64,000 bases of DNA from a virus (taxonomy: Duplodnaviria; Caudoviricetes): positions 4,318 through 68,317 of the IMG/VR virus record IMGVR_UViG_2896384573_000007; one strand, written 5' to 3'. A model generated the notes under the pieces. It was not told where the DNA came from and did not search any database. It was given only the letters and a program-made list of their open reading frames with translations. Both the position numbers and the translations under genes were made by a program. This document shows positions 24,520 to 54,604 of the stretch, piece by piece. The first letter of the stretch is position 1. Each line of letters begins with the position of its first letter.

Positions 24520-24542
24520 GCCAAGTCCTGAATTGACTTGGC
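24520..24542. promoter_or_regulatory. 8-bp inverted repeat over the capsid-gene RBS
   Basis: GCCAAGTC-N7-GACTTGGC; the minus-strand AGGA lies at the loop/stem junction 10 nt before ATG 24515. Confidence 0.6.
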
Positions 24543-31787: not shown

Positions 31788-31900
31788 GAGCTGGCGCAAT
31801 TCGGGCGTCAGGCTGCTCGCAGATTTATCAGCGAGTGCCGCTTGCTTGTCGATAAACACAATCCTATGTCCACAACCGCAACACGAAACGGAGACTTCAA

Positions 31901-33690: not shown

Positions 33691-34146
33691 TCACTCTCCC
33701 AAGAGCAGCGTTATCGGGTCGGTGTCCCAGCGTTCGGGGTGTGCCAGGCGCGCCCGACCGGCGGGCGTCAGGCCGAGTTCTGCGCCCGACTGCATCATCA
33801 ACTTGGCGGCATTGTTCATGACCACGAGCAGGGGATTGCGGATCGGCCCATGCGGGCTCTGGACGAGCAGGCCGGTCATGTCGAGCTTCTCGCGCGCCTG
33901 CCGGAACGTTGCCCAGTTCACCGCGAACGTCTCCAAAGCCGCTTCATCCGCCCGCGTCAGCACCCCCTCCGGCAACGAACTGACGGTGTCCAGCCATAAC
34001 TCCTCGGCCAGCTCGTTCATCCCCGGAGGCATCCTCGGATGCCCCAAACCTTGCGGTTCGTCGTGAATCCGGTGCACGCCGACCTTCGAGCGGTTGCCCT
34101 CGGCGATTTTGATGATCTTCGACTTCGGTTTCGGTCCTCTCGGCAT
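33691..34146 (-). CDS. terS: Terminase small subunit (P27 family)
   Basis: MPRGPKPK...EGN start; NPL...ELGLTPAGR motif. Confidence 0.9.
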   Translation of the reverse strand: MPRGPKPKSKIIKIAEGNRSKVGVHRIHDEPQGLGHPRMPPGMNELAEELWLDTVSSLPEGVLTRADEAALETFAVNWATFRQAREKLDMTGLLVQSPHGPIRNPLLVVMNNAAKLMMQSGAELGLTPAGRARLAHPERWDTDPITLLLGE

Positions 34147-34223
34147 TTTTGGAAGCCTTTTCAGGATGATCGATCGAAAAGATAATCCAAAAAATAAATA
34201 GCCGGAAATTGTAACGAGGCTAC

Positions 34224-34275
34224 CGCCGCGCCTCCGGGCTCCGTGCGGGGGCTTTTGGGGCCTCCCCCCGCCGGA
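34224..34275. repeat. Putative cos region, copy 1 (about 80 bp upstream of terS)
   Basis: GC-rich CGCCGCGCCT core; 23 bp (34229-34251) identical to 40712-40734; canonical position for cos in P27-terS phages. Confidence 0.55.
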
Positions 34276-34473
34276 GGGTACCCGCCCGCAGCGCCTTGCA
34301 ACGGTTGGCTTCGTCGATCGTGACGCGCGCACACTTCTTCATAGTAGGTAACAGAGGACGCTCCGGAATCTGGTTCGCCGAGTCCCCGACCGATGCCGGC
34401 GCAAACGCCAGCGGAAATGACCTTGCCGCACATCCTGCACCTCAGTAGTGTCCGCAACTATAGGGGGACTCGG

Positions 34474-35421
34474 ATGTCGTATTTCTCGGACACGAAGGGC
34501 TGCACGCTCGTCAACAACTTCACACTGCACTATCCCGACAAGCTGTCGAGCGGGCGTCCGTTTACGAGCACTTGCGTGCCGCAAGGAATATGGGTGGATC
34601 TCCACGACATCGAGATCATCCATACGATCGACTGGCAGCACGGGGGATTTGAGAAGCAGGCTCCCGGAAACCCCGAATTCAAGGTGCAGTCCAGGCTGAT
34701 TGCAAAAGGCACTTTCAAGGACACGATCACGGTCTTCCGTGTGCCTGAAGGGCGCGTCGCTTCCTTCCGGGAGCTCGACGTGCAGATCAAGCCGATCAAG
34801 AAGGGCGCGGTCGGTGGCGAAACGAAGTCCACCACGCTCGACGGTGTGGGCTACTCCGGCATGACCTCAAGGACAGTCCCTGACGAAGGGCTGATGGCAG
34901 GCGATCCAGGCACGCTGCTCTACGTAGATCCGACCAAGGATGAATGGCCTTCTGATCACGACAAACCGTACCTGCAGCTTGAGGGGTACATCGACGAGGC
35001 GGAGTTCGCGAGCCTGCTGCAGCGCATGGCCATGACGTCCGCCCCGATCCGCAGCGGCGTTCTGCGTATGGTGGCCGAACTCTTTCAGCATGAGGTCGAT
35101 GCAAGCCTGTCGGAGCCATATCACCCGCACGATTACGGCATGCTCCTTCGCGGAGACGACAAGACCTACGGCATCACCCGGGCGCGGTCCGAGACTGTGT
35201 CGGTGGCGTATAAGCCCATCATGCTGCAGCCTGAACCGGACGAATACGATGCAGCGGTAGATGAAGCGGCCGCGCCGATATCGATGGACAACCTGCCGCC
35301 GGATATCGTCTCCAAGATAAGCAAGGACATGCTCGTCTCCATCGAGAAACGCCTGAAGACCATCTCCACGGTGCTTTGCTTCGGGCTGGGGATCATCGTC
35401 GCCGTGCTGCTCTTGAGGTAA
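34474..35421 (+). CDS. Unknown protein with C-terminal TM anchor (315 aa)
   Basis: AGGGGGA RBS before ATG 34474; ends ISTVLCFGLGIIVAVLLLR. Confidence 0.7.
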   Translation: MSYFSDTKGCTLVNNFTLHYPDKLSSGRPFTSTCVPQGIWVDLHDIEIIHTIDWQHGGFEKQAPGNPEFKVQSRLIAKGTFKDTITVFRVPEGRVASFRELDVQIKPIKKGAVGGETKSTTLDGVGYSGMTSRTVPDEGLMAGDPGTLLYVDPTKDEWPSDHDKPYLQLEGYIDEAEFASLLQRMAMTSAPIRSGVLRMVAELFQHEVDASLSEPYHPHDYGMLLRGDDKTYGITRARSETVSVAYKPIMLQPEPDEYDAAVDEAAAPISMDNLPPDIVSKISKDMLVSIEKRLKTISTVLCFGLGIIVAVLLLR

Positions 35422-35424
35422 CCC

Positions 35425-35667
35425 ATGAAGGACAAGATTGCATCCGCTGCGCAGAATCTCGCGTGTGCAGCGAAGGCCAGGCCAGAAGAAAGCAAGTGGT
35501 CGCTCATCGGCGCGGCTGTGGGTGCGATCCTCGGCCTCATCATTGGGGGCATTGGTGTCACGGCCATGGGTGGAGCGATTGGTGTGCCTGCGACAGTCGT
35601 CTTGGCTGTGGTCGGCGGCGTGTTGGGCAATAGGTACGGTATCTCGAAGGATAGGCCAGTTCGATGA
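35425..35667 (+). CDS. Glycine-zipper small membrane protein (80 aa)
   Basis: GAAVGAILGLIIGGIG...GGAIG...VGGVLG GxxxG repeats. Confidence 0.7.
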   Translation: MKDKIASAAQNLACAAKARPEESKWSLIGAAVGAILGLIIGGIGVTAMGGAIGVPATVVLAVVGGVLGNRYGISKDRPVR

Positions 35668-36569
35668 AATTGCGCATGAGAACCGCCCGGGGACTCTTCA
35701 TTGGATTTCTGGCGCTAGGATCCGGCACGGGGGCTGTAGTCGCAATCGACGTGCCGCCGAATGCCCACCTGGATTACACCGGCCGATCATGGGACTGCGA
35801 CAGAGGGTTCAGGAGAAGCGGCAACGGCTGTGCGGCAGTCCAGCTCCCCGCGAATGCTGAGCTCGACTATACAGGTCACTCATGGACATGTAACCGCGGA
35901 TTTCGGCAGCAGGGGCAAATCTGTATCGTGGTCACTATTCCTCAGGACGCCCAGCTCGATTACACGGGGCATTCTTGGACGTGCAATCGAGGCTTCCGGC
36001 AGCAGGCGCAGAGCTGCGTCCCGGTTCAAATCCCTTCAAACGCATCGCTCGACTACACGGGGCACTCATGGACATGTAACCGCGGTTTCTTTCAGCAAGG
36101 TCAGGTTTGCGTGCCGGTGAGCCTGCCGGAGAACGCCGAGCTGGATTTCAACGGGCACAGTTGGAAATGCAGCTATGGCTTCCGGCGGGTCGGCAATGCA
36201 TGCGAGACGTTCAAGGTGCCAGAAAATGCGCACATCGATTTTACTGGCAACAATTTCGCGTGTGTCCAGAACTACAAACGCGTCGGCGACAAGTGCGAGC
36301 CGATGACACAGGCCGAGATCCAGTACCAGAACTACCTGATGATGCTTGCGATGCAGTGTGGCGGCACGAAGTCGGTTGAGGTCGAAGGAACCTGTGGCAG
36401 CGACAGCGTCAGCGGCGAGATCGACGTGTGCCAAGGATCAAAGGAAGCATCTGGAGAGCTGGAGTTCGACAATGGTCTGACGACCAAGTTCGAGGGCACA
36501 TGGACGTCGGCCGACGAGTTCGAAGGCACTGACGGCTTCGGGAATAGCTGCGATCTGGAGGTGGATTGA
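35664..36569 (+). CDS. Exported Cys-rich repeat protein
   Basis: Signal-like N-terminus; six 31-aa P.NA.LDYTGHSW.C.RGF...G..C units; Cys-containing C-terminal domain. Confidence 0.8.
   Translation: MKLRMRTARGLFIGFLALGSGTGAVVAIDVPPNAHLDYTGRSWDCDRGFRRSGNGCAAVQLPANAELDYTGHSWTCNRGFRQQGQICIVVTIPQDAQLDYTGHSWTCNRGFRQQAQSCVPVQIPSNASLDYTGHSWTCNRGFFQQGQVCVPVSLPENAELDFNGHSWKCSYGFRRVGNACETFKVPENAHIDFTGNNFACVQNYKRVGDKCEPMTQAEIQYQNYLMMLAMQCGGTKSVEVEGTCGSDSVSGEIDVCQGSKEASGELEFDNGLTTKFEGTWTSADEFEGTDGFGNSCDLEVD
35754..36311 (+). repeat. Six diverged 93-bp coding repeats
   Basis: Unit starts at 35754 and 35847, 93-bp period. Confidence 0.85.
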
Positions 36570-37078
36570 TGGCCGACAACATCATTCCGTTCAGAAAGCG
36601 CAAAAGGCCTAAACCGATCAAGCGGCCCAAACAAAATCCGTCATCTCCGAAAGCTTTAATCGCCGTTCTAGGTGTCGCTGCGGCGCTGGCATTCGTTTAC
36701 ACGGATTTCTCGCTCCCAGGTTCGACTGCACAGGCCTCATCGTTCGCTCGTTGCGGCATCATCAAGAGAGACTGTGTGGTCGACGGTGACACCCTCTACG
36801 TCGCCAGCGAGAAAATCCGCGTCGCCGACATCGATACGCCAGAGATCAGCGAGCCGAAGTGTGCATCGGAAAAAGCTCTCGGCGAGCGGGCGACTGAGCG
36901 GTTCATTGAGCTCGTCAATTTGGGACCATTCGAACTGCGCGCATGGGAAGGGCGGGACGAAGACCAATACGGCAGGAAATTGCGTGTACTCGTGCGCGAC
37001 GGGCGCAGCCTCGGTGACCTGCTGGTCGAGGAGGGACTTGCGCGCACCTGGTCAGGTCGTAGGGAGCCGTGGTGTTGA
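36569..37078 (+). CDS. Membrane-anchored thermonuclease (SNase family)
   Basis: VDGDTL, IRVADIDTPE, DQYGR, LVEEGLAR; N-terminal TM segment. Confidence 0.9.
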   Translation: MADNIIPFRKRKRPKPIKRPKQNPSSPKALIAVLGVAAALAFVYTDFSLPGSTAQASSFARCGIIKRDCVVDGDTLYVASEKIRVADIDTPEISEPKCASEKALGERATERFIELVNLGPFELRAWEGRDEDQYGRKLRVLVRDGRSLGDLLVEEGLARTWSGRREPWC

Positions 37079-37397
37079 TACCTCGCCCGGCGGCAAAGAC
37101 TGGCCGATCACGATGCCGCACTGTATACCGTCGCATCATCCGCCCCCTCTCGTATCCCCTTGAATGACATTGCCGTAGACGACTCCAACGACAGCCAGGA
37201 CGGCGAGAGGGCCAGCGAGCCAGCTATACAGTTTGGACACGGAGGGTGTATCGTACTCCTGATGGTTGAATTAAGGGGGTCTGAAATGGAGAAGACAGCA
37301 GCAGCAGTCGCTGTATGGACACCCAACGACTGGTCTCAGATTCAGGCTTCAAGCGCTTGCCTCGAGTTCGAGACATTCTTCAGATCGAGCGTGTCGA

Positions 37398-38000
37398 TCA
37401 TAACTTCTTGAATTCGTAATCCGCCCATCGAAGAGATTTCCGGATTTCCGAAGCTTTCACGCCCTTCAGGGTTTCTTGGACAGCGGCAAGAGCTACCGAG
37501 AAGCTCGTTTTCAGCATCTCTGCCGCTTCCTGTTTTCTCCCGTCCTTCTCGTACATCCGGACGACTTTGTATTTCGCTAGACGTGACAGAGCATCGGCTT
37601 CGATCCTGCCACCTGCATCCACCTTCACGGTGAATAGCATCTCCCAATCTGTGATGTTGCCATAAGCCTGGTGCCGCAGGTTCTTCCTGCGCTGTTCGAT
37701 GTCGACGCAAGTGCCGACTTTCAGAAGCTTCGCCGACCTGGATCCAGCGATGTAAATGTAGCCCTCTGTGTTATGGCGCTTCTGGTAGCCCAACTTGGCT
37801 GTGTCGCACTGTGCGCAATGACCTGACCGTGTCCGGAGACGGTGACCTTTCTCCTTGCAGGGCGTCCCGATGACAACCGTCTGACCTGCTGCCCGAACGC
37901 CAGCCTTCCATGCGGCGGATGATTGTCCGCGCCCATCGTATACGTCCGATGTAGTAAGGCTCTGAGACTTCAGAAATTCAAGCTCGTCCTTCGTCAACAT
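37398..38000 (-). CDS. T5orf172/GIY-YIG-like protein with N-terminal Cys/His knuckle
   Basis: GYIYIAGS...LKVG.C.DIEQR; C....HRLRTRSGHCAQC. Confidence 0.7.
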   Translation of the reverse strand: MLTKDELEFLKSQSLTTSDVYDGRGQSSAAWKAGVRAAGQTVVIGTPCKEKGHRLRTRSGHCAQCDTAKLGYQKRHNTEGYIYIAGSRSAKLLKVGTCVDIEQRRKNLRHQAYGNITDWEMLFTVKVDAGGRIEADALSRLAKYKVVRMYEKDGRKQEAAEMLKTSFSVALAAVQETLKGVKASEIRKSLRWADYEFKKL

Positions 38001-38007
38001 GACGGGA

Positions 38008-38403
38008 TCACTCTCCGATGGTGCTACCGTCCAACTCGTGTTCCCGCAGCACGCATGTTCCGTATTGAATCTTGGATGGGTCAGCCAAAACGGGCTGGCT
38101 GGCTTGACCAGTCTTCAAATTCACGACGAACCTTGGTTGCAAATCCGGACGGTTGGACCACTGCGCTTCCATCCTCTCGTTGGTGCGTACGAGTATCGTT
38201 TTTGTCGCCGCGAGGGAAGTTTTCCGATACTTGCCGCCTGCTTGCCGGAGTGCGTCGCCGTCAATTAGCCAACTCTCAGAACGGAAACCAGTGACGTGCT
38301 TAGGATCGGGGTAACGGCAGAACATGAATGTCGCAGCCTCGGCGTTTGCCTGCGACACGGTAATCAAAGTGCCCATGATCGCAACAGCGATTGTCCTCTT
38401 CAT
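38008..38403 (-). CDS. Putative exported protein (131 aa)
   Basis: MKRTIAVAIMGTLITVSQANA signal peptide. Confidence 0.55.
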   Translation of the reverse strand: MKRTIAVAIMGTLITVSQANAEAATFMFCRYPDPKHVTGFRSESWLIDGDALRQAGGKYRKTSLAATKTILVRTNERMEAQWSNRPDLQPRFVVNLKTGQASQPVLADPSKIQYGTCVLREHELDGSTIGE

Positions 38404-38542
38404 GCCTCACCCTCTATCGACAATACGCCCGTTGATGTACATCCAAAAGTTGGGCACGACAATTCGCCAACAATCTCTAGCCATTGATTTACTTTGTTGA
38501 TCGAAGATAGTTGCAAGCAAGGGACTCAGGGGATCTGGAAAT

Positions 38543-38992
38543 ATGCAACCACAGCCCATCGATGCAGCCAAACACGCCGAAATGATCGGCAAGCCAGTCT
38601 TTGCAATTCTTCTCGTCGTGATCTATGGGATTTATCGCATCGTCCAGGAGGGCATATGGCCTGCAGGCTGGCCGAATGGCACGATCCTAGCTGCGGGCGG
38701 CATCCTGTCAGCGGTCGCGATATTCGCATACATGCGCACAATCGAAGGCGGCAGAGGGCGGAGCTTGGGCAAGGCGCTGTCGGCGTTCGGCGGACTGCTC
38801 CCATATGCGTACTCGCTGTACGTGATATTCCACGTCGGGCTCTGGTCCCTAGTTCAGCTTTTTACCGTCGGATTCGCGGTAACGGGATTGCTCGTGGGTG
38901 TCGTCGGCATTCTGCTCGGATACCGAATCCTAAAGACATTTTATGACATCACAGAACTTGGGAATGCTCGGCTCGCGTCCGAGAAAGCGTGA
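38543..38992 (+). CDS. Multi-pass membrane protein (149 aa)
   Basis: About four hydrophobic segments. Confidence 0.65.
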   Translation: MQPQPIDAAKHAEMIGKPVFAILLVVIYGIYRIVQEGIWPAGWPNGTILAAGGILSAVAIFAYMRTIEGGRGRSLGKALSAFGGLLPYAYSLYVIFHVGLWSLVQLFTVGFAVTGLLVGVVGILLGYRILKTFYDITELGNARLASEKA

Positions 38993-39104
38993 ACTAATCG
39001 CTGCGCTCGACAATCTTGCCGTCGTTCGTGAAGTGACGCCTCGACCCCGTCTCGTAGGAACCGATAGCGGCTGTCGCAATCGGCACCTGGTTGGCGCGCA
39101 GAAT

Positions 39105-40607
39105 TCATCGCATTCGGAAGCGATTCTTGAGTGCCAGCGCCAGCAGGAAGAGCAGAACGGCGCCACCGAGCGCCTCGACTGCGCTGATCGCACGAAAAAT
39201 CCAATTGAACTGGAGGTGGTTGAGGGCATCTATAGCTTCCCTTCGCATTGGCAGGAAGGAAAGCAGGTTTAGCAAGGTCAATTGTGCCGCCGATCCGCAC
39301 GGGAGAGGGATTCCAGCCATGCCGGATGAAGGAGAAATCTTGTTGGAGACGGGGAGCAGGGCCAGCGCGACGAAGCCGATGGCTGCGAGTGCGCCCATGC
39401 CCACAAGGGGGCGCATGAAGCTCGAGCCGTAACCGCTCAGCTTCTCATACGCGAAATTGAGTAGCCAGCCGAACGATAACGGCTTCATGAGCGCGCGGCG
39501 CACCCGCAGCTCTTGGCGGAAGAAAAACTGCTCATCCTCATGTTTCTTCAGCCGCTCCATTTCCAGCTTGAGTCGTTCATAAGCATAGAGGTTGGCCTGT
39601 TGATCCGTCTCCTCGTTGAAGGTCGCCGGCCACGTGACGCCGTCGAGTTCGGTAGCCTCGTGTAGCACCGCGCCCCGGAAATCGGGGACGCACTTCACGA
39701 ATGTTGCGCCCCGGAAGCGGCTACCGGCCTCGAACCTAACGTTGGTAAAGGAGACCGGAGCCCCACGCCATAAGGTCCGATCGAACCACGCACGGTCCTT
39801 GAAGGTGGTTCCGCGGAACTCGGCGCTCGCACCGAAGACGGCATCGATAAAGACTGAACCGCCGTGGAAGATGGCGTTGATGAAGTCTACGTCACCTGTG
39901 AATTCTGCATGGGCGAAATCCGCTGACTCGGAAAATTTGGGTTCGACGAAGCGGACCGGGCCGAGCCGGGCACTCCCGAAATACACATGGCTGTTGAAAT
40001 ACATGTGCGAAAACACAGTATCGCCGGAAACCGTGCATTCGCGCATACTGAACTCGCCACGGACCTCGCCGGCAAACCCCAGCTGTCCTTCGACTTCCAA
40101 GTTGTCGAGATTGACATAATTAAACGTTTCCCCTCGAAAATTTCCGCGAACCTTTATCTTCGCGGAGACAAGTGACAGATCTTCGTCGAAGCTGGCCTTG
40201 GTGGCGTCGATGCCTCGCTCGAAGACGGACCTGTCGAAACGGGCGCCTGCGGGGAACTTGTAGCCTCCCAGGAACAACCTCCGCTCGAAAATCGTGTCGG
40301 AGAAATCCGCCAGCCGGGTGGAATCGGGAAGCTCGGCCTTGGCATTGCCCATACGCGACCGGAGTAGCGACGTGAGTTCGCCACGGATCGCTCGAAAAGT
40401 GACCAAGTCGGGATCGGCGGCGCTCGTCGATCCGCTGTTGCCGGCGTCCAGCCATCGCTGCCATTCGTTACGGTTGCGATCGAGCAGGTCACCGAGTTTT
40501 CCGGGTTCGGGCTCTCCATGCAAAGTCGCGAGACAGTAGTACACGTTCTCGTTCGCGCTCTTCAGCGCGCGCTCTGGCTCAGAATCATTGTCCGTCACTC
40601 TGCCCAT
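39105..40607 (-). CDS. Pentapeptide-repeat protein with C-terminal membrane domain (500 aa)
   Basis: Repeating F..A.F units; GYGSSFMRPL plus TM helices; GGAGGAGG RBS before ATG 40607. Confidence 0.8.
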   Translation of the reverse strand: MGRVTDNDSEPERALKSANENVYYCLATLHGEPEPGKLGDLLDRNRNEWQRWLDAGNSGSTSAADPDLVTFRAIRGELTSLLRSRMGNAKAELPDSTRLADFSDTIFERRLFLGGYKFPAGARFDRSVFERGIDATKASFDEDLSLVSAKIKVRGNFRGETFNYVNLDNLEVEGQLGFAGEVRGEFSMRECTVSGDTVFSHMYFNSHVYFGSARLGPVRFVEPKFSESADFAHAEFTGDVDFINAIFHGGSVFIDAVFGASAEFRGTTFKDRAWFDRTLWRGAPVSFTNVRFEAGSRFRGATFVKCVPDFRGAVLHEATELDGVTWPATFNEETDQQANLYAYERLKLEMERLKKHEDEQFFFRQELRVRRALMKPLSFGWLLNFAYEKLSGYGSSFMRPLVGMGALAAIGFVALALLPVSNKISPSSGMAGIPLPCGSAAQLTLLNLLSFLPMRREAIDALNHLQFNWIFRAISAVEALGGAVLLFLLALALKNRFRMR

Positions 40608-40694
40608 CCTCCTCCTCCTCGACCTCACCCATAATACCTGGCGTGAATTCGCTTCCAAGCACCCCTGACTGACGGCACCTCTTCGTGACAGCCT

Positions 40695-40760
40695 CGCCGC
40701 GCCTGTATGTCCGCCTCCGGGCTCCGTGCGGGGGACTTTGGGACCGCCTCCCCGCCGGGA
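40695..40760. repeat. Second, altered copy of the cos-like sequence
   Basis: CGCCGCGCCT at 40695, then a 12-nt insert, then the 23-bp identity to 34229-34251 and further partial similarity. Confidence 0.7.
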
Positions 40761-41198
40761 TGCCGCCCCCAACGCTGACCGGCGCGGTTACGGGGACGGC
40801 TCCGCTCCGAGGCTGGGCGGGCAAGTCTCAAAGCATCAAGCTTCGTCCGGTCGCTCGATTCTTAATGAAATCAGCGCAGACTCCAACGGAGCGGTTTGTC
40901 GACATCGAGCGTCTTCCCTGAAGCGCGGTAGAAGCGAGCCGCGAGCGCCGGAAGGTCATCCGCAGTCGGCACTTCGATCGAAGCAATCGCGCGGCCATGG
41001 TCATGACCGAGAGCGACAACCCCAAGGACGCTACGTTCGCGGAGGGGTGAGCCCGGGGAGAAGCGACCAATCCGCTCATCTGATCGGGTGGTTCACATTT
41101 CTGCACAAAACATTTTCGGCCTCCTGATGCTGTGGCTGTCTTGTGAAAGCGGGGTAAGGCGGACATAAAGGACTCGGTACACGCATCGGGGGAACCGC

Positions 41199-43030
<1,832 letters not shown>

Positions 43031-43034
<4 letters not shown>

Positions 43035-44395
43035 GCTTCACTCAGCATTCCAGGTACAAGAGCAGCAACGTTGATGGACTCGAAGAGGTGCCAGAGCATT
43101 GGCGCTTGTCGCGCCTTGGTTTTGCCAGTTGGGTACGCGCGCGTCTTGGATGGAAGGGATTGAAGGCCGACGAGTATGTGGACGATGGCTATGTATTTCT
43201 CGCCACGCCCAACATCAAGGGCAGGGAAATAGACTTCGAGAATGTAAACTACATCGATCAGATCCGTTACGATGAATCACCTGAGATCGCTCTCGGGCTG
43301 GGAGATGTTCTCCTTGCAAAAGACGGATCAACCTTAGGCACTGTCAATGTCGTCCGTTGCTTGCCTAGACCCGCGACAGTCAATAGCTCGATTGCGGTGA
43401 TTACGCCGCGCGCTGATCTCAGCGGCATGTACTTGTTCTATTTGTTTCAGAGTTCGTACATGCAAGCGACCATCCAAAGAATTAAAGGGGGAATGGGCGT
43501 TCCCCATTTATTTCAGGAGGACCTCAACAAGTTTCACATTCCACTTCCCCCGCTGCCCGAGCAAATCGCCATTGCCTCCTTTCTTGACCGCGAGACCGGT
43601 AAGATCGATGCGCTGGTGGAGGAGCAGAAGCGGTTGATCGAACTGCTGAAGGAAAAGCGCCAGGCCGTCATCTCCCAGGCGGTCACCAAGGGTCTCAACT
43701 CAGAGAGCCCAATGAAAGTCACGCGTATTGATTGGCTCCAACAAGTGCCACGACACTGGTCTTTATCGCGCCTTGGTTTTGCCACTTGGGTACGAGCACG
43801 TCTTGGATGGAAGGGGCTGAAGGCCGATGAGTATGTGAACGAGGGCTATGTATTTCTCGCCACGCCCAATATCAAAGGCCGGGAAATTGATTTCGACAAT
43901 GTGAACTACATCGATCAATCTCGTTATGAGGAATCTCCTGAGATTGCTCTCCAGGTGGGAGACGTTCTTCTAGCAAAAGACGGATCAACGCTCGGGACTG
44001 TCAACGTCGTTCGCTGTTTGCCGCGCCCAGCGACAGTCAACAGCTCGATTGCCGTAATTACGCCTGGCGACGGGCTCTCCGGGGTGTACTTGTTCTATCT
44101 GTTCCAAAGTTCGTACATGCAGGCGACCATCCAAAGAATTAAGGGGGGAATGGGCGTCCCACATCTATTCCAGGAAGACCTCAATAAATTCCACATCCCC
44201 CTTCCTCCCCTACCCGAGCAAGTCGCTATTGCTGACTTCCTTGACCGCGAGACAGAGAAACTTGACCTCTTGGCGGCACAAGTCGAGACGGCGATTGCAA
44301 AGCTCCAGGAGCGTCGCGCCGCGTTAATTTCCGCAGCAGTTAACGGCAAGATCGATGTCCGAAACCTTGTCGGAGCCCGGGAGGCTGCTGAATGA
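43031..44395 (+). CDS. hsdS: Type I R-M specificity subunit with near-identical TRDs
   Basis: Two TRD + IPLPPLPEQ conserved-region units; ends [15 protein letters not shown]. Confidence 0.95.
43100..44254 (+). repeat. Internal direct repeat in hsdS (43100-43597 vs 43757-44254)
   Basis: 166-aa units differ at 15 positions by manual alignment; 657-bp offset. Confidence 0.95.
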
Positions 44396-44928
44396 CCCCC
44401 TTTAAGTTGCCTGACGTTGCTGCAATGGATGCTGAGGGAAGGGCGAATCTGCGCAAGAACGCGGAGCGACTTCTCAGAAGTGGAAGCCCAACGGAGAAGT
44501 CTAGGGCGCAAGACGTTCTCGACGAACTGGCAAGAGTGATCGGCATCGAAGAGATGCAGCGTCGCGCCATTGTCGCCCGAATGGGCATCCCCGCACGGGT
44601 CGCCAATGCTTTCACTTCCATACCACCCACGGAAACCGAACAGGCCCTCCTTCAGGTGCTGCTCGACAATCCCGACCACACATCCCACGCTCTTAGCGCA
44701 AAATTGACCTGGGGTGGCCAGTCCTGGCACATGCATTTCGGCAAGATGTGCGAAAGGCGAGAGCACCTTCTCTGGGATGCCGAACCTGCGGTGACGCGCG
44801 ACGCAAACTTCTATTGCGGCATCCTCGCAAGCTACTCGGATCTCAGCCACGGCTTTACGATCAAGCCCGAGGTTGCCGAGGGTTTGGCAGCTATCGGAAT
44901 CAGACCGTCGAACAGGTACTCTCGATGA
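44392..44928 (+). CDS. Unknown protein between hsdS and hsdR, probable winged-helix C-terminal domain
   Basis: ATGA-coupled to both neighbours; TSHALSAKL..HFGKM...FTIKPEVAEGL. Confidence 0.7.
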   Translation: MTPFKLPDVAAMDAEGRANLRKNAERLLRSGSPTEKSRAQDVLDELARVIGIEEMQRRAIVARMGIPARVANAFTSIPPTETEQALLQVLLDNPDHTSHALSAKLTWGGQSWHMHFGKMCERREHLLWDAEPAVTRDANFYCGILASYSDLSHGFTIKPEVAEGLAAIGIRPSNRYSR

Positions 44929-47900
44929 GCCTCCACAAGGAAATCAGCTTCGAAGGAGAAATCTGCAGCCACCTCGCGCATCATGGCTGGCATTACGAGG
45001 ATGGCGACGCTGCCAAGTATGACCGCACCCGGGCGCTGTTTCCTGCCGATGTCGTGGCGTGGGTCCAGACTTCGCAGCCGAAGGCTTGGGAGACGCTGGC
45101 GAAGAACCACGGTTCCGCCGCCGAGACCATGCTGCTCGACCGCATCCGCAAGCAACTCGACGAGCGCGGGACCCTGGATGTGCTGCGCCACGGCGTCGAA
45201 CTGATCGGCCTCAGGGCTCCGCTGAAGCTCGCTGAGTTCAAGCCGGCCTTTGGGCTCAACGAGGAGATCCTCGCCCGGTACGACGCCAACCGGCTGCGTG
45301 TCGTACGGCAGGTACGTTACTCGAACAGCAACGAGAATTGCATCGACCTTGTCCTGTTCCTCAACGGGCTCCCTGTTTCGACTGTTGAGTTGAAGACGGA
45401 CTTCACCCAAAGCGTGCAGGACGCGGTGGACCAGTACAGGTTCGATCGGCATCCGAGCCCCAAGGGACAATCGCCTGAGGCGCTCCTGAGCTTCCCCAGC
45501 GGCGCCCTCGTCCACCTTGCAGTCAGCAATGCCGAAGTGATGATGGCGACGAAACTCGAAGGTGCCGACACCCGCTTCCTGCCGTTCAACAAGGGCAATG
45601 AGGGCGGCAAGGGCAACCCGCCCAACCCGAAGGGGCACCCGACCGCCTATCTCTGGGAGGAGGTCTGGGAGCGCCATTCCTGGCTGGAGATCCTGGGGCG
45701 CTACATCGTTGCCGCGAAGGACGCCAAGAAGAAGATCACGGGCCTGATCTTTCCGCGCTTCCATCAGCTAGATGCAAGCCGGAAGCTTCAAGCTGAGGTT
45801 CTCGCCGAGGGCGCAGGGGGCAAGTACCTGATCCAGCATTCGGCGGGATCGGGAAAGACCAACTCGATCGCATGGTCGGCGCATTTCCTTGCCGATCTCC
45901 ATGACGCGCAGCACAAGAAGATCTTCGACACCGTCATCGTCGTCTCCGACCGCAATGTGATTGACACCCAACTTCAGGAAGCGATCTTCAGCTTCGAGCG
46001 CACTACGGGCGTCGTCGAGACGATCACCGGTGAAGGCGGTGCCAAGAGCAGCAAACTTGCCGAAGCGCTTGCGGGAGGGAAAAAGATTGTCGTCTGCACC
46101 ATCCAGACCTTCCCATTCGCGCTGGAGGCGGTGCGGGAACTTGCTGCGACGCAGGGCAAAAAGTTCGCGGTAATCGCCGACGAGGCGCATTCAAGCCAGA
46201 CGGGTGAGACCGCATCGAAGCTGAAGCAGGTTCTCTCAGCCGAAGAACTCGCGGAACTCAGGGACGGTGGCGAGGTCAGCAGCGAAGACATTCTCGCGGC
46301 TCAGATGGCGGCTCGGGCGAGCGAAAGCGGCATCACCTATGTGGCGTTCACCGCGACCCCCAAGGGCAAGACGCTGGAGCTCTTTGGCCGCCGCCCGAAC
46401 CCGAGTGAACCGGCGAGCGAGACCAACAAGCCGCAGCCCTTCCACGTCTATTCCATGCGTCAGGCCATCGAAGAGGGCTTCATTCTCGACGTCCTGAGGA
46501 ATTACACGCCCTATGATCTCGCCTTCAAACTGGCCAACGCTGGTGGGGAGATGGACGACAAAGAGGTGGAGCGCAAGGAGGCGGTCAAGGCGCTGATGCG
46601 CTGGGTGCGGCTGCATCCCTACAATATCAGCCAGAAGGTCCAGATCGTCGTCGAGCATTACCGAGCGAACGTGCAGCCGCTGCTCGACGGCAAGGCGAAG
46701 GCTATGGTGGTCACCAGCAGCCGTGTCGAGGCCGTGCGGTGGCAGATCGCCATGCAGAAATACATCAAGGACCAGAAGTACTCCCTCGGCACCCTAGTCG
46801 CCTTCTCCGGGGAGGTCGATGACAAGGAAAGTGGACCTGACCCCTTCTCGGAGACCAGCAAGGAACTGAACGCGGGGCTGAACGGGCGCGACATCCGCGA
46901 GGCCTTCAAGCTACCGGAATACCACGTGCTGCTGGTCGCCAACAAATTCCAGACCGGGTTCGATCAGCCCCTGCTGTGCGGCATGTATGTCGATCGCCGC
47001 TTGGCGGGAATACAGGCCGTCCAGACGCTCTCCCGCCTCAACAGGGCCCATTCCGGCAAGGATACGACCTACGTCCTCGACTTCGTCAACAGCGGCGACG
47101 ACATCCTTAAGGCGTTTCAGACCTACTACGAGACGGCTGAACTCGCAGGGGTCACCGATCCCAACCTCGTGTTCGACCTCAGGGCGAAGCTGGACGCCGC
47201 CGGATACTATGACAGCTTCGAGGTTGATCGTGTCGTGAAGGCCGAACTCGATCCGCAATCGAAGCAGAGTGATCTTGTAGCCGCCATCATGCCTGTCGCG
47301 GATCGTCTGCTTAAGGCCTACAAGGCGGCACAGGAGCGCCGAACGGTTGCCCTGACGAAAGAGGATACCAAGGTGGCGAAGGATGCCCAGGACGAGATGG
47401 AGGCGCTTCTGCTCTTCCGCAGCGACATGGGCGCGTTTGTCCGGGTCTATGCCTTCCTGTCGCAGATCTTCGACTACGGCAACACCGACATCGAGAAGCG
47501 ATCGATCTTCTACAAGCGACTGACCCCGCTGCTCGACTTCGGTCGCGAACGGGACACTGTTGACGTCTCTCAGATCAAGCTGACGCATCACAAGCTTTCG
47601 ACCAAGGGGCCGCGCTCTCTTGCTCTCACGGGCGAAGCGTCCCCGTTGACGCCCTTCACGGCCCCTGGGTCAGGCTCGGTGCAGGACAAGGAGAAGGCGT
47701 TGCTCGCTGAGATCGTTGCGAGGGTGAACGACCTGTTCCAGGGTGAACTGACGGATGGCGACCAGGTCATCTATGTGAACAGCGTGTTGAAGGGGAAGCT
47801 GCTGGAGTCGGAAACGCTCGTCCAGCAAGCCGAACACAACACGAAGGAGCAGTTTGCGAGTTCGCCGGATCTCTCGAAGGCCATTCTCGACGCGATCATG

Positions 47901-48035
47901 GACGCCTTCGAAGCCCATTCGGTGATGAGCAAGCAGGCCCTCGACTCGCCGAAGATCCGCGAAGGCATCAAGGACATCCTGCTTGGACCGGGGCAGCTTT
48001 GGGAGGGGCTCAGGAAGAAGGCAGAGAACGCGTAG
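44925..48035 (+). CDS. hsdR: Type I R-M restriction subunit
   Basis: IDLVLFLNGLP..TVELK nuclease, HSAGSGKT, IADEAH, FTATPK; start MSLHKEISFE at 44925. Confidence 0.97.
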   Translation: MSLHKEISFEGEICSHLAHHGWHYEDGDAAKYDRTRALFPADVVAWVQTSQPKAWETLAKNHGSAAETMLLDRIRKQLDERGTLDVLRHGVELIGLRAPLKLAEFKPAFGLNEEILARYDANRLRVVRQVRYSNSNENCIDLVLFLNGLPVSTVELKTDFTQSVQDAVDQYRFDRHPSPKGQSPEALLSFPSGALVHLAVSNAEVMMATKLEGADTRFLPFNKGNEGGKGNPPNPKGHPTAYLWEEVWERHSWLEILGRYIVAAKDAKKKITGLIFPRFHQLDASRKLQAEVLAEGAGGKYLIQHSAGSGKTNSIAWSAHFLADLHDAQHKKIFDTVIVVSDRNVIDTQLQEAIFSFERTTGVVETITGEGGAKSSKLAEALAGGKKIVVCTIQTFPFALEAVRELAATQGKKFAVIADEAHSSQTGETASKLKQVLSAEELAELRDGGEVSSEDILAAQMAARASESGITYVAFTATPKGKTLELFGRRPNPSEPASETNKPQPFHVYSMRQAIEEGFILDVLRNYTPYDLAFKLANAGGEMDDKEVERKEAVKALMRWVRLHPYNISQKVQIVVEHYRANVQPLLDGKAKAMVVTSSRVEAVRWQIAMQKYIKDQKYSLGTLVAFSGEVDDKESGPDPFSETSKELNAGLNGRDIREAFKLPEYHVLLVANKFQTGFDQPLLCGMYVDRRLAGIQAVQTLSRLNRAHSGKDTTYVLDFVNSGDDILKAFQTYYETAELAGVTDPNLVFDLRAKLDAAGYYDSFEVDRVVKAELDPQSKQSDLVAAIMPVADRLLKAYKAAQERRTVALTKEDTKVAKDAQDEMEALLLFRSDMGAFVRVYAFLSQIFDYGNTDIEKRSIFYKRLTPLLDFGRERDTVDVSQIKLTHHKLSTKGPRSLALTGEASPLTPFTAPGSGSVQDKEKALLAEIVARVNDLFQGELTDGDQVIYVNSVLKGKLLESETLVQQAEHNTKEQFASSPDLSKAILDAIMDAFEAHSVMSKQALDSPKIREGIKDILLGPGQLWEGLRKKAENA

Positions 48036-48237
48036 CTAGGCTGATCGATGCAATCTGACGGGGGACAGCGAGAATGCGCAAGCCTACTAGGCGACAGCAC
48101 TGTGGTGGGGCCGTTGTCAGTTAGTTCACCGGTGTTGGCGTTCCTCGCGCCGGTGGACGTTCAGCCCCTCGAAGGGGGTTACTCCCGACATTATGCACAC
48201 TCACATGATCAACTTCGTCAAAATGAGGCTTGTTGCC

Positions 48238-48636
48238 CTACCGTCTCTTCCCGAGCACGTAGTCGCGTTTCAATTGCGCGGCAAGGTGTGGGTCGGCAAC
48301 GGAATGGCTATTTACTGCAGTTATTGCCTCCTGCTGGGTGAGTCGTGTCCATGGGTGGGCTGGGTTCAAAGGTAGGCCGTCCTCGTCGCAGGCGCCCGTC
48401 AGACGTCCCTGATCGTAAGCATGCGTCAGCCTGGAATGGTGCTGGTGGCAGAGCGCCTGCAGGTTGGACCAGTGTAGCCGGAGGTGGGGCGCGGCGCGCA
48501 CGGTAACGATGTGATCGACGTGCTCGGTGGGCCTACCGCAGCCCTTCACTTGGCAGTAGGGATGCGCCTTCTTGAACCGGGCGGCGAGGCGGTGCCAGTC
48601 GGCGTCGTAGGGGATGTTGCGGGGTCGCTTGCGCAT
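48238..48636 (-). CDS. HNH endonuclease (HK97 gp74-like packaging accessory)
   Basis: C....C...HVDHI...NLQALC..HHS..T. Confidence 0.9.
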   Translation of the reverse strand: MRKRPRNIPYDADWHRLAARFKKAHPYCQVKGCGRPTEHVDHIVTVRAAPHLRLHWSNLQALCHQHHSRLTHAYDQGRLTGACDEDGLPLNPAHPWTRLTQQEAITAVNSHSVADPHLAAQLKRDYVLGKRR

Positions 48637-48640
48637 GGCT

Positions 48641-48718
48641 TCACGTCCACAGGAACAGCGCAAGCAGGAGCGCTGCCACGACGAGGACGGCGAAGGCGAA
48701 CGTGTCGTGGTGGTCCAT
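48641..48718 (-). CDS. 25-aa membrane micropeptide
   Basis: MDHHDTFAFAVLVVAALLLALFLWT*; GGAGGAGG RBS; stop 4 nt before the HNH ATG. Confidence 0.55.
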   Translation of the reverse strand: MDHHDTFAFAVLVVAALLLALFLWT

Positions 48719-48820
48719 CGGTTTCCTCCTCCAAGCAGCAGCACGGCTCGTCGAGCCAGCACCATCGGCCGTCGATGATCAGCCGCGGCAGGCCGCGATA
48801 GACGGCCCTGCAGCATTTGC

Positions 48821-49081
48821 TCATGGCGCGGCCTCGCTGAGCTTCCTGCCTTCGCCACGTTTCAATGCCTCGATCAGACCGGCGATCTTGTCGTGGATCG
48901 CATCGGCGTCCTGCACGTCGATGCCGAAGCGCGGCATGTACGTCGCCGGGACGAGCGCCGAGAGACCCCGACCCGTTTCGCAATCCTCGACCTCGACGAG
49001 GAAATCATGGCCCTTCGGCTGATAGGATGCGTAAGCGACAAATGGCGGCAGATGTTGAATCCATTTGTACGGCTCGCTCAT
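48821..49081 (-). CDS. Hypothetical protein (86 aa)
   Basis: GGAG RBS before ATG 49081. Confidence 0.55.
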   Translation of the reverse strand: MSEPYKWIQHLPPFVAYASYQPKGHDFLVEVEDCETGRGLSALVPATYMPRFGIDVQDADAIHDKIAGLIEALKRGEGRKLSEAAP

Positions 49082-49334: not shown

Positions 49335-50573
49335 CTACGCTTCGGTGGTCGCCGAAGGCCGCTTTTCGTTGGCGACGAAAACGCCGTTCTTCAACCTTGA
49401 CTTGCTGCCGAGATATTCCTGTTCGAACAGCAGGCCTGACTTCTTCCAGCACTTGACGATGCGGTCGGCGCGCTGCTCCGAGACTTCGAGGCCCTTGGCG
49501 ATGGGGATGCCGACGTAGCGGTCCTTCGATTGCGGCGCGAAGGAATAACGCTCGTATTCCAGCCCCTTAGCGTTCTGGATGACGTCGAGCACGCCGTCGA
49601 TCAGGTCGTAACCGATGTTCTCGAACAGACCGGGCGGCTGCCACGGCACGAGGATGCCCACCTTGTCGGACTCGGGATAGTCGGGCGGGTTTTCGTTTTC
49701 GAGGTCGACGGAGATGAATTTGAACCAGTTGGCCTGGCCCGGATCCGGCAGGTAGTTACCCTTGGCATGGTCGACGCGGACGATGTGGCGCGGGCTGTCG
49801 ACGCCGAGCGACGCGGCCATGTCGGCGGTCATGTTGGTGATGGTGTGCGCCAGCCGGACGAGCCCGCCGAGCGACGAGCCGCCGCGCGATGCGTCGATGT
49901 CGCCGGGGGTGACGACGCCCTTGCGGACGTGGTGCGTCAGCAGGCCTGCGGCGTCCAGGCGGCGGATCATGCCGCGAATGACGGCGGCTGCGGCCTTGAC
50001 CTGGCCGTTGTCGTTTTCCGCGCCTGACCAGAGCTCGATGAACGGGTCGAGCATGAGCACCTCGACGCCGTATTGGCCCATCAGCCGCTCCAGCTGCTTC
50101 AGGTTATCGGTGGCGTGGATGATGCCCTTGCGGTCGACCTGCGCGAGGATGGGCGGGTCGTCGATATGGGCGACGTGGATCTGACGCTCCTCATTCCTGC
50201 CGAAGCCGTAGTGCTTGGCGATGGCGTGCATGCGCCGGTCCAGCTCGTCGCGGTCCTCCTCGACGGTGAGGATGCCGACGCGCTTCGGCGGGCCGACGAT
50301 CTTGAACGGGCCATAGGCGAGACCGGCGGCGAGGTGCCATGCGATGACGAGACCGAAGATGGACTTGCCAGCGCCGCCTGCGGCGATCAGCGACGTCACC
50401 TGCTGCCTGAGCAAGAGCCCGCGCATGATCCATGGCCTGACCGGCAGCGTCTTGGGATCGCGCAGCCGATAGGGCCTGACGCGCACCGGCAGCCGCACGA
50501 CGTTCTCGGCATCGTCGCCGGAGGGGCGGTCGCCGGGGAAGTCGTCGTCGTCCCTCACGGCTCGCTCCTCCAT
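49335..50573 (-). CDS. AAA_25 / RepA-like SF4 helicase-type ATPase
   Basis: AAGGAGKS Walker A, VEED, LDPF..END, THHVRK, SRGGSSL. Confidence 0.85.
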   Translation of the reverse strand: MEERAVRDDDDFPGDRPSGDDAENVVRLPVRVRPYRLRDPKTLPVRPWIMRGLLLRQQVTSLIAAGGAGKSIFGLVIAWHLAAGLAYGPFKIVGPPKRVGILTVEEDRDELDRRMHAIAKHYGFGRNEERQIHVAHIDDPPILAQVDRKGIIHATDNLKQLERLMGQYGVEVLMLDPFIELWSGAENDNGQVKAAAAVIRGMIRRLDAAGLLTHHVRKGVVTPGDIDASRGGSSLGGLVRLAHTITNMTADMAASLGVDSPRHIVRVDHAKGNYLPDPGQANWFKFISVDLENENPPDYPESDKVGILVPWQPPGLFENIGYDLIDGVLDVIQNAKGLEYERYSFAPQSKDRYVGIPIAKGLEVSEQRADRIVKCWKKSGLLFEQEYLGSKSRLKNGVFVANEKRPSATTEA

Positions 50574-51040
50574 TCGTTCTGACGCGCGGCGTTGCGCACC
50601 GCCCAGAAGAGCGTGTCGCGGCGCATGCAGGGGAAGCCGATGGCCTGGACGAAGATGTGCAGCGCGGTCAGGTCGTCGCGGGTGAAAGGCCGCATCTCGA
50701 AGTCGGGTTGGCCGAGCCCCCAGTCGCCGGGAAGCGGTCCCTTGAGCATGATCCGGTGCGTTCGAAGGTCGTAGCCGACGAGGCCGGAAAGCTCCGGGCA
50801 TTCGCTCATGCAGAGGAAGGCGTTGTATTGGTTCGGCATCGGCAGGCCGATCTCGTCATACTGCATCGGCTCGCGCCAGTCGGTATCGCGAACCGGACGC
50901 GGTGGCTTTCGGGCTGCGGCGACGCGCTGGTAGCGGCGGCGATTCTTCTGGTACTCGGCGGCGAAGCGGTCGATCTGCTCGTCGAGAGAGCGCCAGAAGC
51001 GCATCTCAGCCAGCCAGCGCTGCCGCTCCGCGCCCTTCAT
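50555..51040 (-). CDS. Stand-alone VapE/VirE N-terminal-like protein
   Basis: N..N....L.GLVGYD.....RP...DD...L...Q..G.....D....AV..AA pattern; no ATPase part. Confidence 0.5.
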   Translation of the reverse strand: MKGAERQRWLAEMRFWRSLDEQIDRFAAEYQKNRRRYQRVAAARKPPRPVRDTDWREPMQYDEIGLPMPNQYNAFLCMSECPELSGLVGYDLRTHRIMLKGPLPGDWGLGQPDFEMRPFTRDDLTALHIFVQAIGFPCMRRDTLFWAVRNAARQNEWRSEP

Positions 51041-52368
51041 GCCTTGGCTTCCCATTCGGTGATGCGGCCAGCGATCCAGTCGGCGATGTTCAGCGGCCAC
51101 GCATTGCCGATGGCCCGGTAGCGCGGCCCGTCGGGCGCATGCGGCTTGCCGCGCCACGGTATATCGGTCCAGTTGTCGGGCAGGCCCTGCAGGCGCTCGC
51201 ATTCGAGCGGCGTCAGCCGGCGCACGCCCCATTGCGCCGCGACCGCTTGGCTGTAGCCGTCCTCGTCGAGCGCGCCGGGAACGTCGGCGGGCACCGGATC
51301 CTGTCTGGCGTTGAAGGCGACCGCCACCTGCCCACCGGCATTGGCATGGCTCTTCGAAAACTCCATGGCGCGCAGCGTCGGCGCGACGTTGCCACCGGAG
51401 CCGTGGCTCTTCGAATCGAACGCGATGGGGATCAGCGCGTCGTGCATGTCCGCGCCCATCGTACCAGGCGGTCGGTCGCCGCCGGTTCGGTTGGCCGCGC
51501 CGGAGAGCGTCGGTGCCACAACCGGGATGATCGGCTGGCCGCGCCCGGTGCCGTCTTCCGAGGCGTCGAAGCTATCGGCCTTCAGCGTGTGGGCGACGAG
51601 GTCGCTGGCGTATTTGTAGTCGCGCACAAGGACCGGCGACGCGGTGCCGTCGATTTCGTAGTCGCCGAAGGAGACGAGGCGGGCAGCGATGACGGTGTCC
51701 TGTCCGCGTGGCTCGCCGGGACGCTCGACGCCCCGGCCACTTGCGACAAGGCTCTGTGCAACATCGGCGGAAGCGCCTTGCCCCGGCGTTCGGCGCGGCG
51801 CAGGATCCCCGCGCATGCTCTCGGGCTCAAGTAGTACCTCGGCGGGACCGCGCCAGTCTCCAAGATGTCCGACAAGGAAGAGACGCCGTCGTCGCTGCGG
51901 GACGGCGCGCGGAAGGCGTTGTGTTCGGACAAACTGAGCGTCAAGCACGCGCCAGGCACAGCAATACCCGCATTCTTCCAGGCCCCGGAGGAAGGTCGCA
52001 AACGACCGTCCCTTGTCGTGGGACAGGGCTCCGGTGACGTTCTCCCAAACCAGCCAGCGGGGGCGATAGCGCCAAGCCACGGCAAGATAGTCGAGCATGA
52101 GGACGCCACGCGGATCGGCAAGCCCGCGCCTGAGTCCGGCGACCGAGAAGGATTGGCAGGGCGTGCCGCCGGTAACGAGGTCGATGTCGAGGTCGGGCCA
52201 GTCGCGGTAACCATTGACGTCTCCGTAGTTCGGCGTGTCGGGGAAGCGGTAGCGCAGCAACGAGGCGGCGAAGCGGTCGATTTCGGAATGCGCCACGCAG
52301 GACCAGCCATGGGCCTCGAAGGCAAGCTTCGCGGTGCCGATACCGGAGAACAGGTCGAGCAACTTCAT
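51037..52368 (-). CDS. C5-cytosine DNA methyltransferase
   Basis: LDLFSGIG, GGTPCQSFS, WENV, QRRRRLF, RRLTPLECERLQG, IGNA; ATG 52368. Confidence 0.95.
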   Translation of the reverse strand: MKLLDLFSGIGTAKLAFEAHGWSCVAHSEIDRFAASLLRYRFPDTPNYGDVNGYRDWPDLDIDLVTGGTPCQSFSVAGLRRGLADPRGVLMLDYLAVAWRYRPRWLVWENVTGALSHDKGRSFATFLRGLEECGYCCAWRVLDAQFVRTQRLPRAVPQRRRRLFLVGHLGDWRGPAEVLLEPESMRGDPAPRRTPGQGASADVAQSLVASGRGVERPGEPRGQDTVIAARLVSFGDYEIDGTASPVLVRDYKYASDLVAHTLKADSFDASEDGTGRGQPIIPVVAPTLSGAANRTGGDRPPGTMGADMHDALIPIAFDSKSHGSGGNVAPTLRAMEFSKSHANAGGQVAVAFNARQDPVPADVPGALDEDGYSQAVAAQWGVRRLTPLECERLQGLPDNWTDIPWRGKPHAPDGPRYRAIGNAWPLNIADWIAGRITEWEAKA

Positions 52369-52931
52369 CCCGCTTCCCCTGCACGCAGCAACCGGAGGAT
52401 CTGCGAGCAGCGGCTCGCCCAGATGGCGACGCATGCCGCCTCGGCCTCGTTGTGGTTCTTGAAGGTGATGCCCAGCCACCGGCAATATTCGCGGGCGCGG
52501 CGCTTTGCTTCGTCCTTTCCAAGCGTGCCACCGCCGCGCCCATAGAGCGCCGCGCGCCATGTGTTGACCGGGACCGTCTCGAAGCCGATGCCGCGGTCGA
52601 TGGCGAGCTGGCGCACATGACCCTGGATTTCCGGCAGCACCATCTGATCGGCGTTCGGCGTCCAGTAGCCATGGTTCCTGCCGCCGAGATCCACCTTCAC
52701 CCGTTTCTGGTAACCGGCGATCAGCCGCATGGCCGCTTCGAGGCAGATGAAGTCGGGGCGGCGGGCAAGGACGACGTCGTGCAGGCGCAGGCCGAAGGCG
52801 GCGCATTTCTCCTCCGCCGTGTCGCCGTGGCTCGTGAACGACGAGCACTCGATGTCGCGCTCTTGGCCGGGGAAGCGGTAGAGCGCCAGCCCGCACTGCG
52901 TGACCGAGGGATCGACGCCGAGGATCAGCAT
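52365..52931 (-). CDS. RuvC-like Holliday junction resolvase
   Basis: ILGVDPS, CLEAA, NHNEAEA. Confidence 0.75.
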   Translation of the reverse strand: MLILGVDPSVTQCGLALYRFPGQERDIECSSFTSHGDTAEEKCAAFGLRLHDVVLARRPDFICLEAAMRLIAGYQKRVKVDLGGRNHGYWTPNADQMVLPEIQGHVRQLAIDRGIGFETVPVNTWRAALYGRGGGTLGKDEAKRRAREYCRWLGITFKNHNEAEAACVAIWASRCSQILRLLRAGEAG

Positions 52932-54295: not shown

Positions 54296-54604
54296 ATGTC
54301 GACCGAACGAGGAAGCCGTTACCTGCACCTCCGGCTGAAGGACGTGCCGGAGGAATTTCGCGACGATCTCATACAGTTTATCGTCGAAGGTGTCTTGCCG
54401 CTTGATAACTGCTTGCTAATGCAAGTGCTTACCGGCCTCGACGCGCTTGCGGCGCGGTCTTTCAGGGACCGCCGCGAACACCTTTCGGCCATCGTCGAGG
54501 CGCTGCAGACCGAATGCCCGGATTATGCATGGTCGTCGGTCGGCGCGTGTGTCCGCTGGGAGCGACGTGGAGGCCTTTCCGGCTATCGCCGTGAATTGAG
54601 ATGA
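54296..54604 (+). CDS. Hypothetical early protein
   Basis: GAGGGA RBS before ATG 54296. Confidence 0.55.
   Translation: MSTERGSRYLHLRLKDVPEEFRDDLIQFIVEGVLPLDNCLLMQVLTGLDALAARSFRDRREHLSAIVEALQTECPDYAWSSVGACVRWERRGGLSGYRRELR

Follow-up and report, generated by a model that had tools for sequence, protein, structure and literature searches.

The window, meaning the whole 64,000-nt stretch of DNA analysed here, clearly contains a prophage in a Sinorhizobium-like genome at approximately 16000–57000. An intact operon carried by this prophage, hsdM-hsdS-orfX-hsdR, occupies 41199–48035 on the plus strand, and its four ORFs are joined by ATGA start/stop overlaps indicative of translational coupling (Table 1). 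The nearest homologues of the operon proteins all come from Sinorhizobium, and a megablast search of the 30–55 kb region against 50,697 phage records returned no match. The operon lies in a stretch of lower GC content at approximately 34–48 kb (56–60% GC, versus 63–67% around it). Low-GC cargo was also observed around the operon at 34000–41000 and 48238–48858, and these surroundings resemble a prophage defence hotspot. At 10039–14839, a second patch of low GC content (54%) was observed.

Table 1. Features of the operon, its specificity subunit and the surrounding prophage region, with positions in the window.
Feature	Position	Strand	Description
hsdM	41199..43034	+	611 aa; m6A methyltransferase subunit; Pfam HsdM_N and N6_Mtase; ATGA overlap with hsdS
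hsdS	43031..44395	+	454 aa; specificity subunit with twin target-recognition domains (TRDs); two Pfam Methylase_S stretches
TRD1	43088..43564	+	aa 20–178 of HsdS
Central conserved region	43565..43744	+	aa 179–238; coiled-coil helix and pre-TRD2 flank; 76–87% identical among alleles
TRD2	43745..44221	+	aa 239–397 of HsdS
C-terminal conserved region	44222..44395	+	aa 398–454; 88% identical to the S. meliloti allele
orfX	44392..44928	+	178 aa; between hsdS and hsdR, translationally coupled
hsdR	44925..48035	+	1036 aa; restriction/translocase subunit; Pfam HSDR_N nuclease, ResIII/SWI2_SNF2 SF2 motor, T1R_D3-like
FRG-domain protein	10039-11421	-	Second low-GC patch
327-aa protein			No family; second low-GC patch
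HATPase_c_3 protein	12806-14839	+	677 aa; second low-GC patch
Head-completion domain	16235-17680		Prophage gene
Protease-capsid fusion	22584-24524		Prophage gene
Large terminase (TerL)	30225-31961		Prophage gene
ParB-N6/N4 methylase	32457-33689		Prophage gene
SNase-like protein	36566-37078		Low-GC cargo
T5orf172 protein	37398-38000	-	Low-GC cargo
Pentapeptide-repeat protein	39105-40772	-	555 aa; low-GC cargo
HNH protein	48238-48858	-	Low-GC cargo; weak PtuB-like matches
AAA_25 protein	49335-50801		Prophage region
C5 methylase	51037-52896		Prophage region
YqaJ recombinase	54601-55506		Prophage region

Domain profiles and structural modeling agree on the identity of the three Hsd subunits. HsdM matched the Pfam profiles PF02384 (N6_Mtase, 3.7e-59) and PF12161 (HsdM_N, 1e-26), the NPPF and TAGTGG motifs can be read in its translation, and many Sinorhizobium strains carry an HsdM that is 92–94% identical to it. 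HsdR matched PF04313, PF04851/PF18766 and PF22679, together with TIGR00348 at 7e-46, which is under the cut-off of that model; its D...ELK, GSGKT and DEAH motifs are readable, and its start codon (ATG at 44925) agrees with the N-terminus of the S. meliloti HsdR. The AlphaFold2 model of HsdS (pLDDT 91.6, pTM 0.82) contains two long helices, at residues 175–220 and 394–437, and two globular domains whose secondary-structure elements follow one and the same order. Its top Foldseek matches were the HsdS structures 1YF2 (E 4.6e-26), 2Y7C (EcoKI), 7VS4 (PacII) and 5YBB, with an identity of only 17–20% to solved HsdS structures in the fold alignment. For placement among the type IA–IE complementation families (prototypes EcoKI, EcoAI, EcoR124I, StySBLI and KpnBI), the best solved relatives are likewise remote (EcoKI S, E 2e-18 and 17% identity in the fold alignment; PacII M subunits, E 1e-36). 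With HsdM, a two-TRD HsdS and HsdR all present, the operon is, as read from its sequence, a restriction-modification system of type I. Its location in a prophage cargo region might suggest inactive or decaying cargo in which the twin HsdS has no function. However, this is extremely improbable, given four intact ORFs with catalytic motifs and coupled starts, and omega values of 0.08–0.18 for hsdM, hsdR and orfX relative to S. meliloti.

The remaining gene of the operon, orfX, matched nothing in Pfam, PADLOC or NCBIfam. Homologues of 175–178 aa occupy the same operon place in S. meliloti and other Sinorhizobium alleles (L017 9365–9892, L035 5667–6203 and L036 5703–6239), and the gene is conserved relative to S. 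meliloti with a dN/dS of 0.18. In the Atlas it falls in clusters of approximately 100 hypothetical proteins. Residues 62–178 weakly resemble parts of HNH and McrB-N proteins (TM 0.51–0.54), which serves as a lead only. We also observed sister alleles, with HsdM 93–94% identical, from which orfX is absent (L028 4333–6288, L033 4333–6267 and L029 4333–5535 plus 5627–6286); their HsdS is 644–651 aa long and bears a C-terminal extension of approximately 210 aa, which in one strain is a separate 219-aa ORF. This extension represents an alternative accessory module at the operon position otherwise taken by orfX.

The distinguishing feature of the window HsdS is the likeness of its two TRDs. A direct repeat with a spacing of 657 nt was detected in hsdS independently by a repeat search, and self-alignment of the protein at an offset of 219 residues is gap-free from about aa 14 to 197. 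The similarity spans approximately 43070 to 43600, which corresponds to the TRD and the first turns of the next conserved helix. Within the 166-aa units encoded at 43100–43597 and 43757–44254, 151 of 166 residues are identical, while the DNA is 83.3% identical; the DNA differences are distributed over codon positions 1, 2 and 3 as 16, 8 and 59. The initial annotation had described these units as differing at 15 residues, mostly conservatively, with many synonymous differences in the DNA. That count was reproduced exactly, nine of the 15 substitutions have a BLOSUM62 score of at least 0, and most of the divergence is synonymous. When delimited as TRD1 and TRD2, the domains share 91.2% amino acid identity over 159 aa, with dN 0.064, dS 0.85–0.87 and omega of approximately 0.07 by the Nei-Gojobori method, a ratio far from 1. 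The GC3 of TRD1 and TRD2 is 0.59 and 0.57, respectively, compared with 0.76–0.80 in hsdM and hsdR. An assembly artefact was ruled out as the source of the twin TRDs, since 17% of the bases differ between the copies. In 120 homologues of comparable length, the N- and C-terminal halves of one HsdS are usually only about 30–35% identical; the window HsdS is thus unusual within its own family.

Sequence divergence between the two copies also bears on the stability of the repeat. The longest exact matches between TRD1 and TRD2 are 26, 20 and 19 nt, and efficient RecA-dependent exchange usually needs an exact match near or above this scale. Homologous collapse should therefore be infrequent, and the earlier proposal that divergence limits collapse of the repeat seems reasonable.

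To place these domains in a wider context, TRD1 alone was used as a query, which yielded 2648 protein clusters at E <= 0.001. The TRD type is carried by Planctomycetota, Acidobacteria, Burkholderia, Ralstonia, Acinetobacter, actinomycetes and one thaumarchaeal MAG, and identity to TRD1 is typically 75–82% (about 80%) across phyla, at either HsdS position. Of the homologues retrieved, 113 carry the type at the N position and 29 at the C position. When 147 TRD copies were placed on a maximum-likelihood tree, 20 switches of position were counted, at least six of them forced by well-supported branches. Furthermore, a pre-TRD motif (W L.. V P. H W) and a post-TRD motif (LPPLPEQ.AIA.FLDRET.K.D) each occur twice per protein throughout the family, so that the start of the central region is repeated after TRD2 (LPPLPEQ.AIA.FLDRET) and its end repeats the HsdS N-terminus (W L.. 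V P. H W). A repeat-flanked layout of this kind has been linked to the movement of TRDs between positions in H. pylori (Furuta 2011; PMC3077401). Both hallmarks of domain movement (DoMo), namely a TRD type at either position and TRDs flanked by repeated conserved sequence, are thus present in this family.

This breadth alters the meaning of the low omega. The initial annotation had invoked purifying selection on the duplicated half-site, and the low ratio itself stands. Nevertheless, as the TRD type remains approximately 80% identical across phyla in either position, strong purifying selection appears to be a property of the whole TRD family instead of the twin pair, and a low omega is no proof of selection on the twin arrangement.

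Two copies of the TRD were found only in P0001, P0006, P0011 and P0012, with N/C identities of 91, 77, 87 and 80%, respectively. A second copy approximately doubles the score, which places twin alleles at the head of a TRD search; the twin arrangement accounts for about four of the 2648 clusters with this TRD type (about 0.15%). In P0006, which lies within a complete hsdM-hsdS-hsdR operon, the two copies sit in different clades of the tree, indicating an allele assembled from diverged cassettes. In each of P0011 and P0012, the N copy is most closely related to the C copy of the same protein (87% and 80%), although the likeness between the two proteins is only 73%, a pattern that would fit either independent duplications or concerted evolution. 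Hence, the twin arrangement is rare but recurrent, and the three other twin alleles are, from their sequences, of independent origin. P0011, P0012 and P0127 are metagenomic HsdS proteins.

The closest relative of the entire window HsdS is S. meliloti WP_088200310.1 (CP021818.1), with 69% identity. Its operon has the same hsdM-hsdS-orfX-hsdR order and is flanked by a phage-type integrase on one side and by a resolvase and a CHAT-domain gene on the other. Window positions 41043–48154 are 89–91% identical to the S. meliloti DNA, interrupted by a single clean gap at 43065–43546, which corresponds to the TRD1 cassette; the S. meliloti TRD at position 1 is unrelated to TRD1 (33% identical). TRD2 shares 95.6% amino acid identity with the S. 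meliloti TRD2 (dS 0.18) and TRD1 shares 89.3% with the same domain (dS 1.19), while the remainder of the operon gives dS values of 0.27–0.47. Identity along the operon ranges from 0.79 to 0.97, which marks the operon as a mosaic. Five more alleles with HsdM 92–94% identical carry unrelated TRDs at both positions. No other copy of the TRD was found in the genome to which the window belongs (7.7 Mb, 192 contigs), where the sole other hsdS-like match is 26% identical, and among representatives of 31 congeneric species the best match reached only 38–40%, with no close orthologue. Plasmid sequences, searched with the operon by megablast, matched it only in part, at 73–76%.

These distances constrain the origin of the twin allele. 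A recent duplication in place was rejected, as the dS of 0.87 between TRD1 and TRD2 far exceeds both the 0.18 between the two TRD2 sequences and the values found elsewhere in the operon; the copies therefore cannot stem from an in-place duplication that postdates the divergence from the S. meliloti allele. The protein tree has the form (T1,(T2,Smel-C)), with SH-aLRT values of 84 and 95, and the clade uniting all three has a support of only 84. Over 477 nucleotide sites, TRD2 and the S. meliloti TRD2 agree against TRD1 at 72, TRD1 and TRD2 agree against S. meliloti at 17, and TRD1 and S. meliloti agree against TRD2 at five. TRD1, which occupies position 1 of the window HsdS, is nearer to the C-position lineage (89–91%) than to any sampled N-position TRD (<=84%), which requires a change of position in this lineage at a depth of dS of approximately 0.9. 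Given the sister relationship of TRD2 and the S. meliloti TRD2, the divergence between TRD1 and TRD2 need not date a duplication inside the window hsdS. Two histories are compatible with these data: an ancestral twin in which S. meliloti later replaced TRD1, or a diverged TRD of the same lineage that recombined into position 1 (or 2) of the window lineage.

The twin allele is probably one product of ordinary TRD cassette movement in an intact prophage-borne operon, with a symmetric site to be expected. Under this reading, the Rhizobiales operons would form an allelic series whose TRD cassettes are swapped and also shifted from one of the two positions to the other, by way of the conserved repeats flanking each TRD, as in DoMo. 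The split between TRD1 and TRD2, at a dS of approximately 0.9, would have occurred well before that between the window and S. meliloti operons (dS 0.2–0.5), and the likeness of the two TRD proteins would reflect the conservation of this TRD type everywhere, without a demonstrable special constraint on the pair.

An old duplication, as originally proposed, was borne out as to the age of the copies (dS of about 0.87), but a duplication within the gene is not needed, given that TRD2 has its sister in S. meliloti and cassettes are swapped. The fuller version of that proposal holds that one ancient in-gene duplication took place, that the copies were kept together for a palindromic site while their divergence blocks collapse, and that S. 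meliloti later swapped its TRD1. We regard it as rather unlikely. It accords with the closer relationship of TRD1 to TRD2 (91%) and the S. meliloti TRD2 (89%) than to other sampled TRDs, the next-closest of which is 84% identical, with the shortness of the exact runs (26, 20 and 19 nt) and the omega of 0.07, and with the excess of sites shared by TRD1 and TRD2 over those shared by TRD1 and S. meliloti (17 versus 5; p = 0.017, uncorrected, the window and S. meliloti branches being equal in hsdM), a weak hint of sequence exchange between the copies inside one gene. However, no second allele with the same twin pair was found among the 2648 clusters, exchange of cassettes can be shown to be common in operons of this family, and omega is low for this TRD type everywhere. 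In addition, a collapsed, half-size HsdS of 235 aa would presumably form a dimer and retain the palindrome (PMC3874165, PMC6158711, PMC12418389). As dimers of half-size subunits still specify palindromes, both copies are not obviously required for specificity.

A related scenario, in which the twin TRDs have been co-resident for a long time (dS of approximately 0.9) and were kept alike for a palindromic target by selection and occasional gene conversion, is unlikely. The first ~130 nt of the TRDs (43088–43220 versus 43745–43877) are the most alike, at 90–92%, and nine of the 17 sites at which TRD1 and TRD2 agree against S. meliloti fall there, which gives a weak hint of a short conversion tract or exchange between the two domains. 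If long co-residence were true, the window would encode a symmetric type I enzyme outside type IC that is natural, stable and covalently linked, and this TRD family would have reached such a solution on at least three further occasions.

Comparison of the two domains with their family bears on the expected recognition site. All 14 differences between TRD1 and TRD2 within aa 20–178 lie in columns that vary freely in the 147-TRD alignment; the mean entropy of these columns is 2.44 bits, compared with 0.71 bits for the identical columns (Mann-Whitney p = 1e-7). Moreover, in 89 of the 89 columns that are at least 90% conserved, both TRD1 and TRD2 carry the consensus residue. Both positions are thus filled by a single TRD homology group. 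In the established M2S1 architecture, a two-fold axis relates one TRD to the other, as supported by the symmetrical model of Kneale, by the solved HsdS structures that the model of the window HsdS matched, and by the engineered EcoR124I-NT, which recognises a symmetric site (PMC2877798, PMC3320862). Given this symmetry and one TRD type at both positions, a symmetric bipartite site is likely for the window HsdS. Two TRDs reading the same half-site X would specify X-N(n)-rc(X); both strands of this site would be methylated, and HsdR would restrict the unmethylated form. No bipartite motif attributable to the operon was found in two S. meliloti/Ensifer methylome papers, and papers on Xylella, M. 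hyorhinis, S. aureus and lactococci yielded no match to the window TRD.

An identity of 91% does not guarantee a perfect palindrome, because in H. pylori a small number of substitutions within a single TRD homology group can alter the half-site (PMC3983042). The two TRDs could have drifted to slightly different half-sites, resulting in a near-palindrome that is degenerate or differs by one base. The Eco851I site, listed as GTCA-N6-TGAY (PMC3874165), is of this kind, and the 14 differences include non-conservative ones at aa 78, 89 and 127–129. Nonetheless, we consider this outcome improbable, since every difference falls in a freely varying column and every conserved column agrees.

The principle that one TRD used twice gives a symmetric site is not new, having been described for engineered enzymes and for the shuffling of domains in other bacteria. 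The window HsdS resembles EcoR124I-NT in this respect, with its symmetric bipartite site being predicted. EcoR124I-NT is active as methylase and nuclease, belongs to type IC and has identical copies, whereas the window allele is natural and full-length, its copies are 9% diverged and its family is remote from type IC. Half-size HsdS subunits that dimerise and specify palindromes have been described for NgoAV, EcoDXXI and EcoR124I truncations, S. aureus half-S and lactococcal truncated S (PMC3874165, PMC6158711, PMC12418389), and NgoAV, whose S is truncated, was the sole naturally occurring palindromic system named in a 2013 review of type I enzymes (PMC3874165). The predicted window site would likewise be a symmetric type I site derived from one TRD type used twice; unlike the dimer of truncated, single-TRD subunits, however, the window TRDs are covalently linked in a subunit of normal length. 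In H. pylori, HPV225_1544, a type IIG S gene, carries one TRD in duplicate, at positions 1 and 2, and RGA-N7-TCY, a type I-like motif that is palindromic, was observed but left unassigned (PMC3077401; PMC3983042). The window family shares with H. pylori DoMo the occurrence of a TRD type at position 1 or 2, the repeats flanking the TRDs and the existence of a same-TRD allele. In contrast to HPV225_1544, the window twin resides in a classical hsdMSR operon, its divergence is quantified, and it belongs to another family and phylum.

Natural full-length HsdS proteins with one TRD type at both positions have rarely been documented. The new element here, carried by a rhizobial prophage, is an old (dS 0.87), diverged, full-length twin whose sister allele has only TRD2 in common with it. 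As the principle itself was established before, the value of this allele is practical and not conceptual, and lies in motif assignment for a very widespread TRD and in the transformation barriers of rhizobia. The window allele, its S. meliloti sister and the alleles with unrelated TRDs constitute a ready natural set for questions of specificity: whether the half-site is the same in either position, whether the spacer shifts with the pairing, and whether a collapsed half-size subunit keeps its specificity. Shorter HsdS proteins with this TRD were also observed. P0130, P0140 and P0143 (263–293 aa), the last on a 38.5-kb contig, have the same TRD and central helix followed by an unrelated tail, and may be natural half-size subunits or frameshifted genes.
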